64,000 nt of DNA. It comes from Escherichia coli (GTDB lineage: Bacteria > Pseudomonadota > Gammaproteobacteria > Enterobacterales > Enterobacteriaceae). The stretch lies in assembly GCF_024223415.1 (NCBI RefSeq), contig NZ_CP100500.1; one strand, given 5' to 3'. A program made the translations under genes and the position numbers. The notes beneath the pieces were generated by a model. That model was given only the letters and a program-made list of their open reading frames with translations, ran no database searches and was not told where the DNA came from. Within the stretch, counting starts at the first letter, position 1, and every line of letters starts with the position of its first letter. Positions 1,871-8,019 of the stretch are shown here, in pieces.

Positions 1871-2175
1871 ACCATACTCCGATGCCGTTCATGCAAACTA
1901 TCAGCCCAATGAAGAGCATATACAGGAACAGAATTACAAGCCTGAACTTGAACTGAGAAAATTGAAACGATGTCTATGAATCACACATTTTATTACAAGG
2001 CAACAACTACCTTGAAGCTCTATGTTGAGCCTGTTTACCATTCTGTGTAATATGCATTTTCTTTAAAGTGACCGTCAGGACGGTCACTGATTACCCATTC
2101 TGAAGAGACTGTAATTAAAATTGTGTAATTGCCTGTTTTTGATATGTTCACTCCAACAACGGAGACAGGCAAACG

Positions 2176-3336
2176 ATGGACGAAAAGAAACTTAAAGTCC
2201 TTGCGGCTGAACTGGCCAAAGGCCTTAAAACCGAAGCCGACCTCAACCAGTTTTCACGCATGTTGACAAAGCTTACCGTCGAAACGGCGCTCAATGCAGA
2301 ACTGACTGACCATCTAGGTCATGAGAAAAATGCTCCTAAATCAGGCTCTAATACCCGTAATGGCTACTCGTCAAAAACGGTATTGTGCGATGATGGCGAG
2401 ATCGAACTTAACACGCCGCGTGACCGTGAAAATACCTTCGAACCACAACTGGTGAAGAAAAATCAGACCCGCATTACCGGCATGGACAACCAGATCCTGG
2501 CGCTGTATGCCAGAGGGATGACTACCCGCGAAATTACCTCAGCCTTCAAAGAAATGTACGACGCCGATGTCTCGCCCACGCTGATATCCAAAGTGACCGA
2601 TGCGGTTAAAGAACAGGTCTCTGAATGGCAAAACCGACCGTTGGATGCACTGTATCCCATTGTTTATCTTGACTGTATTGTGGTTAAGGTTCGTCACAGC
2701 GGGAGTGTCATTAACAAAGCGGTGTTCCTCGCGCTGGGCATCAATACCGACGGTCAGAAAGAGCTGCTGGATATGTGGCTGGCCGAAAATGAAGGTGCAA
2801 AGTTCTGGCTGAATGTACTGACGGAACTGAAAAATCGCGGCCTGAACGATATCCTTATCGCCTTCGTGGACGGCCTGAAAGGCTTCCCGGAAGCGATAAA
2901 TAGCGTGTACCCGCAGACGCATATTCAGCTCTGCATCATCCATATGGTGCGCAACAGCCTGAAATTCGTGTCGTGGAAGGATTACAAAGCCGTCACCAGC
3001 GGGCTGAAAGCGGTATATCAGGCCCCGACAGAGGAAGCGGCGTTGATGGCGTTGGATAAGTTTGCAGGCGTCTGGGATGAAAAATACCCGCAAATCAGCA
3101 AGAGCTGGCGCACACACTGGGAAAATCTCAACACCTTCTTCGGTTACCCACCGGATATCCGCAAGGCCATCTACACGACGAATGCCATCGAATCGCTGAA
3201 CAGTGTCATTCGGCAGGCGATAAAGAAGCGCAAGGTGTTCCCAACGGACGACTCGGTGCGAAAAGTGATTTATCTGGCGATACAGTCGGCGTCAAAAAAT
3301 GGAGTATGCCAATCCAGAACTGGCGGCTGGCAATGA
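2176..3336 (+). CDS. IS256-family transposase with C-terminal frameshift
   Basis: 386-aa ORF with IS256/mutator-type transposase similarity. The frame breaks in an A-run near 3295-3300; the +1 frame continues KKWSMPIQNWRLAMSRFIIEFGDRLSEHL to a stop at 3381-3383, the expected transposase C-terminus. Confidence 0.85.
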   Translation: MDEKKLKVLAAELAKGLKTEADLNQFSRMLTKLTVETALNAELTDHLGHEKNAPKSGSNTRNGYSSKTVLCDDGEIELNTPRDRENTFEPQLVKKNQTRITGMDNQILALYARGMTTREITSAFKEMYDADVSPTLISKVTDAVKEQVSEWQNRPLDALYPIVYLDCIVVKVRHSGSVINKAVFLALGINTDGQKELLDMWLAENEGAKFWLNVLTELKNRGLNDILIAFVDGLKGFPEAINSVYPQTHIQLCIIHMVRNSLKFVSWKDYKAVTSGLKAVYQAPTEEAALMALDKFAGVWDEKYPQISKSWRTHWENLNTFFGYPPDIRKAIYTTNAIESLNSVIRQAIKKRKVFPTDDSVRKVIYLAIQSASKNGVCQSRTGGWQ

Positions 3337-3699
3337 GCCGTTTTATTATCGAGTTCGGTGACCGCCTTAGCGAGCACCTTTAATACGGCGGCAGTTACAC
3401 AGAATTATTTACAGGGTCATTCTGAATTCAGTGCAGAATTAAAACATGTGTGCAAAATAATTTAATTCAGACAGATTTTTATTTCACTATGGCTATCCCA
3501 GAACAATCAGTACAAATAATAAAAGACATATCACAGCAACACTCCACACTGACAGCGCAAAAATAAATGCCGCCTTTGTTATCTTCATATACAAGCAACC
3601 TGTCCTGATAATCACCAACTCATGTTTTATTCTTAACCATTCGTCACAAATACAACAAAAAATAACAGCAGCAGCACCGATATCACAATATAAGATACA

Positions 3700-4155
3700 T
3701 TATTCAACACCTGAATCCCCCGCAGCTTCTCTCCCCTTTATAAAACGCCCCTTCCGGAATCCAGACCGCTGCAGTGCACGACGAAGATGACCGTATACCG
3801 TCTTGTCATTCTGCCCCGTCTCTTCTGTAATCTCCGCAATACTTAAACCTCTGTAATACCGGTTCAGTACCGCTCTGCGCTCTTCCAGCGTCAACACACC
3901 TCCGGCCGCTCTCAGATTCAGCATCGACTTATTCAGAATACAGCAGGCCTCTCCGGTAAAAAGAATACGAACAATATCTGTATACTCATCATCACAGAAT
4001 ACAAAATAATATCTGAATGACCTGCCTGACTGCACCCTTCTTCTGTCTGATATGGCATCTTCTATATATCTGATTCGACTGCTTACGGTTCCAAATATCT
4101 CTCGCAGGGCTTTTTCAAAATAAATATCTCTCGTCGCCAGGATTATATCCAGCAT
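3700..4155 (-). CDS. small HTH protein with sigma-70 region-4-like C-terminus
   Basis: 151-aa ORF directly downstream of the adhesin on the same strand; C-terminal LTLEERRAVLNRYYRGLSIAEITEETGQNDKTVYGHLRRAL resembles a sigma-70 region 4 / LuxR-type HTH. Family unassigned. Confidence 0.5.
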   Translation of the reverse strand: MLDIILATRDIYFEKALREIFGTVSSRIRYIEDAISDRRRVQSGRSFRYYFVFCDDEYTDIVRILFTGEACCILNKSMLNLRAAGGVLTLEERRAVLNRYYRGLSIAEITEETGQNDKTVYGHLRRALQRSGFRKGRFIKGREAAGDSGVE

Positions 4156-4215
4156 CTCTGTACCTCATTATATCCCGGGGGACTCCCCCGGGACAGATAT
4201 CTAAATCCTGACCTG

Positions 4216-5358
4216 TCAGAACTCAAAATTCACACCAGCATTCCACGATGCGGATGACCCACCTGCAGCAACTGCAACTTTTCCTGCCACATTCTCTGTG
4301 AAACGGTAGCCCACGCCCACCGCAATGGCCTGCTCATCACGGTAACCACCAACGGCTGCTGTCGCGTTAAATTTTCCAACACTGTATGGCTGGAAAAGAC
4401 CGGCCAGTGCCGCGCTCTGGGCTGCACTCTCCCTTAACTCCTTCCGGTTCTCTTTAATCTGCTCCTGCATATTATTCATTCTCTCTGTCGCCATCTTCTG
4501 CCAGGCTTCCGTCAAATCCAGACGATGACTGTTATTCCTTATCGCTGCTGTATTTGAGGCTATTGCTGCATCCGTCTGCGCCCTGTTCTTCACAAGCACA
4601 TCGCTGAGATGTTCTGCCTGGCTTTTCGCTTCTTTACGGACATCCCGTACACTTTTATCTGTATAAGCCCGGGAAACCTGAACTGTTTCATCCGCTTTTT
4701 CTTTTATTTCATCCTGAAGAGCAAGAGAAGATGCATCCGTATACGCCACCGCTGCCGATGTGCCTGCAATAATATCCCTGCTGAGTTCATCACGTACTGC
4801 TGTAACCTGACTGTCAGTATGAGCACGGGCATCTCTGTATACACCACCTATCTCACCACGCAGACTGTCTCCCGACACCCGTACAGCATCTGCAATGGCG
4901 TTGTCCATCTGTCCTTTTGTGGCCGCATCACTATCCTTAACACCATCTGAAACATTTATAATCCGGCGGGTTTCCGGTGCACCATCAACTGAAACTCCAT
5001 ATCCTGAAGGACCGGCCCCTACAGAAAGTACATTGTTTTCTCCATTCACCTGAGAGCCATACCCCAGAGCGACACTGTTGTCTGCATTAAAAACAGCTGT
5101 CTTATTTCCCACTGCCATGGATTTATCCGCATCCAGAATTGCTGCACCACTACCTACGGCAAAATTATATCCTGTATCATTTAGTTGACGGTCAATCACA
5201 GCTACTTTTTCAACTGACTGACCGCCACCATCAATCCAGATAATACCCGCCGATGACTCAGTAAGTGTTTTATGAGCCAAAGCCTGAGATGAGAGCAGCA
5301 GGGCCACACTCACTGCCAGCGCGCTTTTCTTTAAAAAAGCATCACGTCTTTTAAGCAT
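4216..5358 (-). CDS. YadA-like trimeric autotransporter adhesin (Eib/YadA type)
   Basis: Start taken at the internal Met (MLKRRD...) followed by a signal-peptide-like stretch; repetitive head/stalk motifs, coiled-coil-like region, and C-terminal beta-barrel anchor ending ...[16 protein letters not shown]. Confidence 0.75.
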
Positions 5359-5844
5359 TCTGTTATTCTCCTGTATTATTACTTCACCAGCCAGAACGGT
5401 AGTGCGGAGCAAAAATACAGTGATAAGAATCCTCTTTTATTAATTTAATAATGCCAGGAATATTATTGTGTATAATATGCGCCCTCAATTTAAGCAGCAG
5501 AAAAGCAATGACGCGAAAATCATTAAAATACATACAGATAAAACATCATAACTATAATTATAATAAGCGCGCTTATTTTAGCATCTGAACATTTAAAGTA
5601 CTGCTATCACAAAACAATAAAAATCCTGGTTAATATCTCTGATGATTGAATGAGAAATTCACGATGTCTGGTGAGAATTCTGTTCAAAACGAGGAATGCA
5701 GACGTACACGTGGCAGGTATGGACTTCCACCGATTTAACTTTTTTCCTTCCTTGTATTTACACATCACACATTTTGCGCTACAAAAATTTCACGTGGCAC
5801 GCACCACGTGATCCGTAGAAAAGCCTCTTGTTACGAATTTCGTA

Positions 5845-6556: not shown

Positions 6557-6745
6557 TTACAATAGCTCTCTGGCTGCCGCCACAATAGCTTGCGCGGTTA
6601 ACCCGTACTCTCTCTGTAAAAAGTCCTGAGTTTCAACCTGGCCATACCGCTCTTTAACCCCCACCCGACGCATGGGCACAGGACAAGTTTCTACAAGCAC
6701 TTCAGCAACTGCTGAACCTAATCCATTATGAATACGGTAATGACT
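6557..6745 (-). pseudogene. 3' fragment of a transketolase-like (TPP enzyme) C-terminal-subunit gene, truncated at the IS1 end
   Basis: Minus-strand translation ...HNGLGSAVAEVLVETCPVPMRRVGVKERYGQVETQDFLQREYGLTAQAIVAAARELL then stop (6557-6559); the frame runs straight into the IS1-like inverted repeat at 6745. Confidence 0.5.
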
Positions 6746-6812
6746 CCAATTAGTTGAATTAGGAGTATAATAGCCACTTTTAAGGTTCTTTCATGGTCAC
6801 AGTTAACCTTCA

Positions 6813-7064
6813 TTGCTCCTGTTGCCAGTCCGTTCAGGTTTACCGTCACGGGAAGAACCCAAAGGACATGATCGATTTCGCTGCCGTGACTGTCATCGAG
6901 TGCTTCAGCTCACTTACCGTTACGAGGCCCGTAAACCGGGAGTTAAAGAGCAAATCACTGAAATGGCTTTCAACGGTGCCGGAGTTCGCGATACTGCCCG
7001 TACGCTGAAAATCGGCATTAATACTGTCATCCGGACTTTAAAAAACTCTCGCCACGAAGAATAA
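6813..7064 (+). CDS. insA: IS1-family InsA-like protein
   Basis: 83-aa ORF with Cys-rich N-terminus (CRDCHRVLQL) and InsA-like HTH (ITEMAFNGAGVRDTARTLKIGINTVIRTLKNS); divergent from canonical IS1 InsA. Confidence 0.7.
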   Translation: MLLLPVRSGLPSREEPKGHDRFRCRDCHRVLQLTYRYEARKPGVKEQITEMAFNGAGVRDTARTLKIGINTVIRTLKNSRHEE

Positions 7065-7082
7065 CGTCATACCCGGTCGCTC

Positions 7083-7377
7083 ATGCTGATATGGCACTCA
7101 TCTGCGAACTTGATGAGCAATGGAGTTTTGTCGGCAGTAAAGCGCGACAGCACTGGCTCTGGTACACGTACAACACGAAAACTGGTGGCGTTCTGGCCTA
7201 CACTTTTGGCCTACGGACTGATTAAACCTGTCGTGAATTGCTGGCGCTGCTTGCCCTTTTACCATCGGTATGTTGACCACTGACGAATGGGGTAGTTACA
7301 CCAGAGAGTTACCGAAGGAGAAGCATCTGACTGGTAAGATTTTTACTCAGCGCATTGAGCGCAACATCTACCTCTGA
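7083..7377 (+). pseudogene. insB: IS1-family InsB-like transposase, interrupted
   Basis: Pieces ...DEQWSFVGSKARQHWLWYTYNTKTGGVLAYTFG... and ...DEWGSYTRELPKEKHLTGKIFTQRIERN... match InsB but lie in different frames with stops. Confidence 0.6.
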
Positions 7378-8019
7378 GAACCCGAATCAAACGTCTGGCC
7401 CGCAGAACTATCTGTTTCTCGCGCTCTGTAGAACTTCATGAAAAAGTCATCGGTGCCTTTATCGAAAAATATATGTTCTACTAATTGGAGTCACCACCTT
7501 CGTTTGTTTAAAGAACCTGCTGGTCCTGCCATTAATATTACCTGCTGATTGCTTCACATCCGGATTCCTCGCACTGCGCGCGGGTTATTGTTTCGTTTTC
7601 GGCCACGGGGTCGCCAGGGCTCTGTTTGCAGGCCATGATGGCCTGACCTGTACTGTTTCTCAGGCACTGAGATGTCCGTTTACGCCATTTGTTCCCTGCC
7701 CCTCTGTCTGATAACGAATACGCTCACAACGCACAGTACTGAACAATACCGACAACAACATGTCTTACATGAAATTCGCTGTAACATCCACCGGAAAACA
7801 TTTTCAGATATCGGATGAGGTACTACTTCCATTGACAGCGCGAGGTAACAAAATTGATGGTAACTCTGACCATTAACCGTAAACCGCAGGGTATTTTCAG
7901 TAAATCACCGGCAACGCCGCTGCAGGATAAAACGGACACAGCATACAAAATGAAGGCCGGTGACCAGATACCACAGTTGAACGATAAACAGAAACCTGCT
8001 GATAAAACACCGTGGCGAC

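Follow-up and report, generated by a model that had tools for sequence, protein, structure and literature searches.

A 64,000-nucleotide stretch of Escherichia coli DNA (NCBI RefSeq assembly GCF_024223415.1, contig NZ_CP100500.1), here called the window, encodes on its minus strand an adhesin of the trimeric autotransporter type (4216-5358; 380 amino acids, with the stop codon at 4216-4218), recognized from its open reading frame (ORF), its Pfam matches, and its homology to EibC. After a gap of exactly 60 bp (4156-4215), it is followed on the same strand by a small gene (3700-4155; 151 amino acids) whose product has a helix-turn-helix (HTH) domain and belongs to the ORF-156 family. Together they form an Eib-type adhesin cassette of two genes, possibly three or four, in a decayed E. 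coli genomic-island segment. An original prediction, made from the DNA sequence without database searches, had given the coordinates, lengths, and spacing of the two minus-strand ORFs and the families of the flanking insertion sequences (IS) correctly, and it had proposed domain annotation of both proteins and comparison with Eib/YadA-family loci. Both analyses were carried out; they place a YadA_anchor domain on the adhesin and a Sigma70_r4_2 domain on the small protein, and they find the adhesin 37% identical to EibC and the small protein homologous to ORF-156. The pair is not a chance arrangement of ORFs, because RefSeq E. coli genomes annotate both genes ("YadA-like family protein" and "sigma factor-like helix-turn-helix DNA-binding protein") and because the small gene is at least 99% identical in 181 of its 183 carriers among 5,426 complete E. 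coli genomes.

The start of the adhesin is taken to be the ATG at 5358, because RefSeq homologs begin with MLKRRD; the mechanical ORF is longer, beginning at a TTG (5412). Residues 1-28 (5275-5358) are a predicted Sec signal peptide: by eye, the n-region is basic, the hydrophobic core spans 13 residues, and A-L-A stands ahead of the likely cut. The peptide is kept in all alleles, including truncated ones. It is followed by a head of about four YadA-like left-handed beta-roll repeats (residues ~60-118; 5005-5181), detected as two weak YadA_head repeats (E = 0.018 and 0.021), which is the part that varies most between alleles. The neck and the start of the stalk (residues ~127-158; 4885-4980) are invariant among alleles and match the YadA_stalk/neck model (E = 8.4e-4, residues 132-158). 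A coiled-coil stalk (4396-4884) contains a 99-bp (33-amino-acid) unit at approximately 4784-4873, the phase of the repeat being approximate; the unit is present once here, and the window copy of the adhesin has no tandem repeats. The C-terminal YadA-type membrane anchor (PF03895; E = 2.3e-16, residues 322-380; 4219-4395) aligns with the solved YadA anchor 2lme (E = 1.4e-17) and closely matches the anchor of EibC. The best NCBIfam match is YadA_autotrans (E = 1.8e-23), at 83 bits far under the 750-bit cutoff of that model. The anchor, stalk, and head matches bear out the earlier description of an intact trimeric autotransporter, with a predicted signal peptide. Proteins that follow the type Vc route are exported by Sec, form a 12-stranded barrel from three anchors, and display the head at the surface on a coiled-coil stalk; the window adhesin, a short lollipop-type member of this class, is expected to do the same by analogy.

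Among characterized adhesins, the protein is related to the Eib group. Its identity with EibC is 37% (E = 4e-49), with head, neck, and stalk aligning and anchors matching closely, and the corresponding values are 36% for EibD, 35.5% for EibE, and 57% for EibA over the C-terminal quarter (tblastn); among phage sequences, it matches best the eib genes in prophages of ECOR-9. The head is shorter than that of the Eib proteins, and the adhesin appears to be without the saddle segment of the Eib stalk, because a 10-residue gap falls at the expected position in the EibC alignment. The stalk region that matches the immunoglobulin-binding segments of Eib aligns poorly and includes the 10-residue gap, and comparison with the sole solved EibD fragment gives an E of only 0.18. 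Close relatives of the adhesin carry the automatic source name "immunoglobulin-binding protein"; this name is not to be trusted alone, because Eib-like E. coli adhesins form several lineages in distinct contexts, some without immunoglobulin G binding (preprint 10.64898/2025.12.25.695649).

The small protein consists of a C-terminal HTH of the sigma-4/LuxR(GerE) type (residues 87-130; 3766-3897; Sigma70_r4_2, E = 4e-7) and a family-specific N-terminal domain of about 85 residues (3901-4155), which is predicted to alternate between beta and alpha structure and is conserved over three branches of the family. The start codon is preceded at 7 nt by a GAGG Shine-Dalgarno sequence. The resemblance to sigma-70 region 4 noted in the original prediction holds for the fold and not for the function of a sigma factor: only region 4 matches, and sigma region 2 was not found in the protein; NCBIfam sigma models score 19-21 bits at best where 43-206 is required, each time on residues ~67-130; and a profile of the family ranks GerE first (1.9e-4), followed by the DNA-binding domains of response regulators (VraR and EvgA) and then by sigma-4. 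Pfam GerE is matched by three of seven family members; the window protein itself matches Sigma70_r4_2 and not GerE. Structural matches are limited to ~44 residues of the HTH. A motif in the N-terminal domain, IILATRD...L, recalls, by eye only, the first strand and the first helix of receivers of the NarL type; none of the seven family members has a Response_reg match, and a receiver fold was not recovered in structure comparison. The AlphaFold2 (AF2) model has a mean confidence (pLDDT, predicted local distance difference test) of 65 overall and 42-77 across the N-terminal domain. The protein is best described as a putative LuxR/GerE-type regulator with a family-specific N-terminal domain, rather than as a sigma factor. 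Homology to GadE or DctR was considered and rejected, BLASTP finding none and hhalign giving probabilities of 0.8% (GadE) and 4.9% (DctR).

Profile and pairwise comparisons make the small protein a distant but clear homolog of ORF-156, and the most divergent family member found. BLASTP aligns residues 2-133 with ORF-156C at 22% identity (E = 4e-5), and the family profile matches ORF-156C with an hhalign probability of 99.7% (E = 2.7e-26). In PHROGs, residues 3-75 match phrog_6585, a 156-position profile of unknown function (E = 3.3e-4). Seven diverse family members, of about 150-160 amino acids, share 15 invariant residues distributed over both halves of the protein. In the ECOR-9 prophages (GenBank AF151091 and AF151674-AF151676), the gene for ORF-156 lies directly 3′ of eibA, eibC, and eibD, and the record of eibE also has an annotated orf-156E. 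The order eib (eibA, eibC), stem-loop, orf-156, orf-60 is already known from AF151091 and AF151674, and the annotation of orf-156 beside eib genes goes back to 2000. The combination of adhesin and HTH gene, originally thought to be non-standard, is thus the layout of the classical eib loci. On these comparisons the pair is a recognizable cassette, a diverged form of the Eib-type adhesin/ORF-156 arrangement already known and not a new kind of system. The window and the eib loci have in common the order of adhesin, stem-loop, ~150-amino-acid HTH gene, and small membrane ORF, and their intergenic spacing is similar (about 90 nt in the eib loci, 60 nt in the window); they differ in the intergenic hairpin (followed by a U-run only in the eib loci), and in the setting, which is a lambdoid prophage for eib and a genomic island for the window pair, where no phage genes adjoin the adhesin. 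No mention of ORF-156 was found in the literature searched, which did not extend to the original papers (PMC97405 and PMC1347334).

ORF-156-like sequence occurs in 174 phage records, and among the phage records listed, every near-identical (at least 92%) full-length ORF-156 gene has an adhesin just upstream. In IMG/VR, 36 ORF-156-like loci were recovered, 35 of them with enough upstream sequence to judge; in 23 of these, a YadA-type anchor is encoded in the same orientation and stops 86-94 nt before the gene. The other 12 constitute one sub-branch in which the gene, like that of phage 2B8, follows tail-fiber genes and has no adhesin; the regulator is therefore not strictly adhesin-dependent. 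The copy in 2B8 is full length and precedes genes for the effectors NleG and EspM2. In many Stx (Shiga toxin) phages such as 933W (L0123; L018, 3944-4225), a truncated or frameshifted ORF-156-like remnant lies right after the tail-fiber genes, also without an adhesin.

The loci without an adhesin, lying as they do near tail-fiber and type III effector genes, are a point in favor of the main rival to a functional coupling of the two genes: the small HTH gene would be a "moron" that acts independently of the adhesin on targets of its own in the host or carrier, such as further horizontally acquired genes, and the two would be linked by history alone through shared inheritance in the variable region of lambdoid prophages. 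The terminator-like hairpin with a U-run between eib and orf-156 in prophages is another. The fixed spacing in the 23 viral loci speaks against it, as does the retention of the pair across two unrelated kinds of mobile element and despite divergence to 22% identity for the regulator and 37% for the adhesin; the hairpin in the island, moreover, has no U-run, and another branch of the family also lies 3′ of a surface-protein gene. We regard such independence as possible, though not probable.

That other branch is found on E. coli IncF plasmids, where a 160-amino-acid protein aligns over its full length with the small protein (pairwise E = 5e-10, 22% identity; tblastn). Immediately 5′ of its gene is one that encodes a giant Big_13 Ig-repeat protein, preceded on plasmid M8-A by genes for type I secretion; the gene for the 160-amino-acid protein is in turn followed by a second LuxR-type gene of 166 amino acids. 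In the two copies of this surface cluster (NZ_CP010192.1, L009, where the type I secretion genes were seen, and NZ_CP011019.1, L010), the other strand encodes a divergent PapB-like regulator and a classical autotransporter of ~1,250-1,300 amino acids.

Taken over all these loci, the linkage of adhesin and HTH gene is old and conserved; it is well backed by synteny, yet not obligatory. The comparisons further indicate that the cassette has moved among prophages, islands, and plasmids over evolutionary time, by means other than the present IS copies.

In the island form, the pair holds a fixed place in a genomic-island segment of about 3% of complete E. coli genomes. The 183 genomes with the small gene all have it on the chromosome, in up to eight places per genome, and its ORF is intact in all carriers but one. 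Direct searches with the protein returned near-identical copies only. Relatives outside E. coli and its phages and plasmids were sought with phmmer in 1.84 billion representative proteins, which gave fragments of the same protein and weak sigma-4 matches only, and in a scan of one genome per species, which gave none. This narrow distribution is what would be expected if the small ORF were a decaying or functionless passenger that looks conserved through recent spread of the island; purifying selection is not demonstrable among copies that are at least 99% identical, and three of the five sites that vary among seven island copies alter the protein. The passenger explanation is nevertheless improbable, given an ORF that remains intact in 182 of 183 genomes, a proper ribosome-binding site, and an HTH domain recognized by Pfam. 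The homologs are full length, and their 15 invariant residues extend over both domains in three deeply diverged branches, so that long-term selection on the fold is required. The intactness of the ORF and the full-length homologs also dispose of the concern that the small ORF might be an unrelated gene fragment.

The 3′ 55% of the adhesin gene is conserved as strongly as the small gene; the two are present in roughly equal numbers of genomes and are adjacent at every locus inspected. The head, in contrast to this conserved half, is highly variable and in some alleles wholly swapped, and the 33-amino-acid stalk unit is present in one to three copies, for a protein length of 375 to 456 amino acids. 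Such cassette-like variation in head and stalk suggests that the adhesin is expressed and exposed to selection. Approximately 200 further complete genomes retain only the promoter and the first ~45 codons of the adhesin, the HTH gene being gone. In the two truncated loci inspected (L007, 4512-5078, and L008, 4518-5084), the equivalent of window positions 5275-5412 is kept and a sul2 resistance region adjoins the break; strAB/tetA lie near sul2 in one and tet(B) in the other, and the remnant is annotated as a 188-amino-acid hypothetical protein. The island-borne adhesin is found mostly in poultry and human extraintestinal isolates.

The island segment around the pair is one for carbohydrate uptake. 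In its fuller copies (BEN2908, MSHS 133, and 20Ec-P-124), the pair has on one side a c-type lysozyme-inhibitor gene and on the other the remnant of a transposase, after which comes an operon for transketolase and a phosphotransferase system (PTS). In the window, IS1414 (IS256 family; 2105-3417, plus strand) is a simple insertion in the spacer downstream of the HTH gene; its transposase frame is broken near the 3′ end (386 versus about 401 amino acids). IS1 (6736-7498, plus strand) abuts a 5.3-kb deletion that, relative to L001 (15389-20672), has removed most of the transketolase genes, an ascorbate-type PTS transporter, and a LacI-family regulator. The pair does lie between IS256-family and IS1-family elements, as originally described. 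The presence of an IS on both sides, and the occurrence of several copies of the pair in some genomes, at up to eight places, could be taken to indicate a composite transposon that moves as a unit. The two elements, however, are of different families, and the 8-bp target duplication ATTCTGAA (2097-2104 and 3418-3425) flanks IS1414 alone; the module is for these reasons not a composite transposon. IS1 marks the edge of a deletion, island copies elsewhere hold the pair without an IS on the HTH side, and the extra copies in strain GF4 (NZ_CP172217.1; up to eight copies of the HTH gene) are inside larger duplicated segments of the island. The suggestion that the pair may move by means of its flanking IS elements is thus very improbable; alignment of the window to the fuller island copies makes IS1414 and IS1 later arrivals with no part in the cassette.

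One of the GF4 copies of the HTH gene (L005, 1-7449) is beside dolP, sodC, and genes for a fimbrial protein and a fragment of a pilin glycosylation ligase; these neighboring genes have new protein accessions, unlike standard E. coli alleles, and the chromosome appears heavily rearranged by IS elements. The window segment was also compared with the tkt1 island, but an identification was rejected; that island sits between metE and ysgA, with no adhesin listed (PMC3349570). Nothing on an adhesin in the selC island of BEN2908 (AGI-3) was found in the literature searched, the original papers being outside that search.

The sequences surrounding the two genes bear on how they may be transcribed. A single sigma-70-like promoter match, TTCAGA-18-TATTAT (5560-5589, minus strand), is present upstream of the adhesin, within an AT-rich leader, and a terminator-like hairpin closing the upstream transposase remnant (5790-5811, minus strand) marks the upstream edge of the cassette. 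The intergenic gap contains a GC-rich hairpin (4171-4195, minus strand; 11-bp stem, -21.9 kcal/mol, no U-tract) in the position of the stem-loop that follows eibA and eibC; no promoter-like site was found in the gap (4156-4215). Co-transcription of adhesin and small gene is plausible because the gap is only 60 bp, no promoter-like site lies within it, the hairpin has no U-run, and the small gene has a good ribosome-binding site. In the eib prophages, by contrast, the small gene may be transcribed separately because of the U-run after the hairpin. A native hairpin, GTGACCGTC-AGG-GACGGTCAC (2069-2091, minus strand), was ~300 bp past the HTH gene before IS1414 inserted. The element now separates this hairpin, at which the transcription unit probably ended, from the cassette.

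Two candidate hydrophobic ORFs follow on the same strand. The first, of 25 amino acids (MLNNVSYIVISVLLLLFFVVFVTNG; 3633-3710), overlaps the stop codon of the HTH gene, a place analogous to that of ORF-60, which overlaps the end of ORF-156 in the eib prophages. The second, of 31 amino acids (MKITKAAFIFALSVWSVAVICLLLFVLIVLG; 3493-3588), has no family match. Neither is annotated by PGAP (the Prokaryotic Genome Annotation Pipeline), and neither has a clear ribosome-binding site.

The promoter-like site is inside a patch of ~100 bp (5505-5604) that exists as two alleles, with ~40 differing positions, no indels, and identical flanks, a pattern suggestive of a short exchange by recombination across this sole promoter-like site. 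The ~90%-identity class, carried by ~250 genomes, likely corresponds to the other allele. Several candidate control elements were examined here and rejected. A 14-bp perfect palindrome between -35 and -10 (ATAAGCGCGCTTAT; 5561-5574), a candidate operator, is absent from the second promoter allele. A 16-nt imperfect inverted repeat around the promoter (5454-5469 and 5614-5629) might have formed an invertible switch, but 367 of 371 genomes are colinear and in one piece across it. An RcsAB-box-like site (5455-5468) is one of four matches in the window, where chance alone predicts 4.06.

The interpretation that we favor, with a probability of roughly 0.55, is that this is an Eib-type cassette in which an ORF-156-family LuxR-type regulator is co-expressed with, and functionally tied to, the adhesin. 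The adhesin and the small gene, perhaps with the small ORFs, would share one transcription unit that starts in the AT-rich promoter region ahead of the adhesin gene. Having no U-tract, the GC-rich intergenic hairpin would probably lower or stabilize the transcripts unequally, leading to much adhesin and little regulator. The regulator would then bind DNA and couple expression of the adhesin to that of other genes; it could feed back on the promoter of the cassette or, alternatively, cross-regulate other surface or motility genes in the manner of the regulators that end fimbrial operons. Several observations weigh against this interpretation: the ORF-156-like genes without an adhesin in phage 2B8 and in 12 of the 35 informative viral loci; the hairpins of the eib prophages, which with their U-run resemble real terminators; candidate operator palindromes that are not conserved between the two promoter alleles; an N-terminal domain with no fold assigned to it, in a structure model of moderate quality (pLDDT 65); and the near-identity of the island copies, which leaves selection on the small gene not measurable.

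A broader and more tentative proposal is that the ORF-156 family as a whole consists of dedicated, adhesin-coupled LuxR-type regulators of E. coli mobile elements, which would be co-expressed with Eib-type trimeric autotransporters, or on plasmids with the type-I-secreted giant Ig-repeat protein, and would reprogram host transcription once the adhesin is made; we think it doubtful. Possible routes include relief of silencing of the cassette, repression of motility, or pairing with RcsB, as for other LuxR proteins that have no receiver. If such a class of regulators exists, no cis-linked family of regulators would have been described before it for E. coli trimeric autotransporters, and it could help to explain the poor, conditional expression of eib. 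Eib-type adhesins play a part in aggregation, in chain-like adherence, and in resistance to serum, and their control would be approachable through one 456-bp gene. The present analysis shows that this gene encodes a predicted LuxR-type DNA-binding protein and that it has remained linked to the adhesin gene in prophages and islands alike although both have diverged deeply; in a sister branch of the ORF-156 family, the gene follows that of a different, giant surface protein.

Among other known systems, the prototype of the type Vc class, YadA of Yersinia, has the head-neck-stalk-anchor plan in common with the window adhesin. YadA is plasmid-borne and controlled by an unlinked regulator, VirF; it is not known to have an adjacent small HTH gene. 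A short YadA-family adhesin of avian pathogenic E. coli (APEC), eYadA of strain TW-XM, is reported to have roles in adhesion and virulence (PMC12955052). The window adhesin is not eYadA: eyadA occupies another locus, between cueR and ybbJ, and the 23% identity is confined to stalk and anchor. Two small hypothetical ORFs, of 140 and 67 amino acids (L003, 7175-7797), come after eyadA as well, in the same orientation, and neither has similarity to the HTH protein; the phenotypes of eyadA deletion, which include higher motility (PMC12955052), might involve polar effects on these two ORFs.

The small protein has an HTH of the same type as the small proteins GerE, RcsA, BglJ, GadE, DctR, and MatA/EcpR, and it has in common with them its small size and a non-phosphorylatable N-terminal part; in every test run, however, its N-terminal domain was unrelated to those of GerE/RcsA/DctR-type regulators. 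MatA/EcpR is encoded in an adhesin operon and represses flhDC. PapX and FocX of E. coli and MrpJ of Proteus are small DNA-binding proteins encoded last in fimbrial operons, where they are co-expressed with the adhesin and switch off motility. Those regulators have MarR-type and Xre-type HTH domains and accompany chaperone-usher fimbriae, whereas the small protein described here is LuxR-type and its adhesin is a trimeric autotransporter. The small HTH gene resembles them in its place 3′ of an adhesin gene, and by analogy only may be linked to motility.

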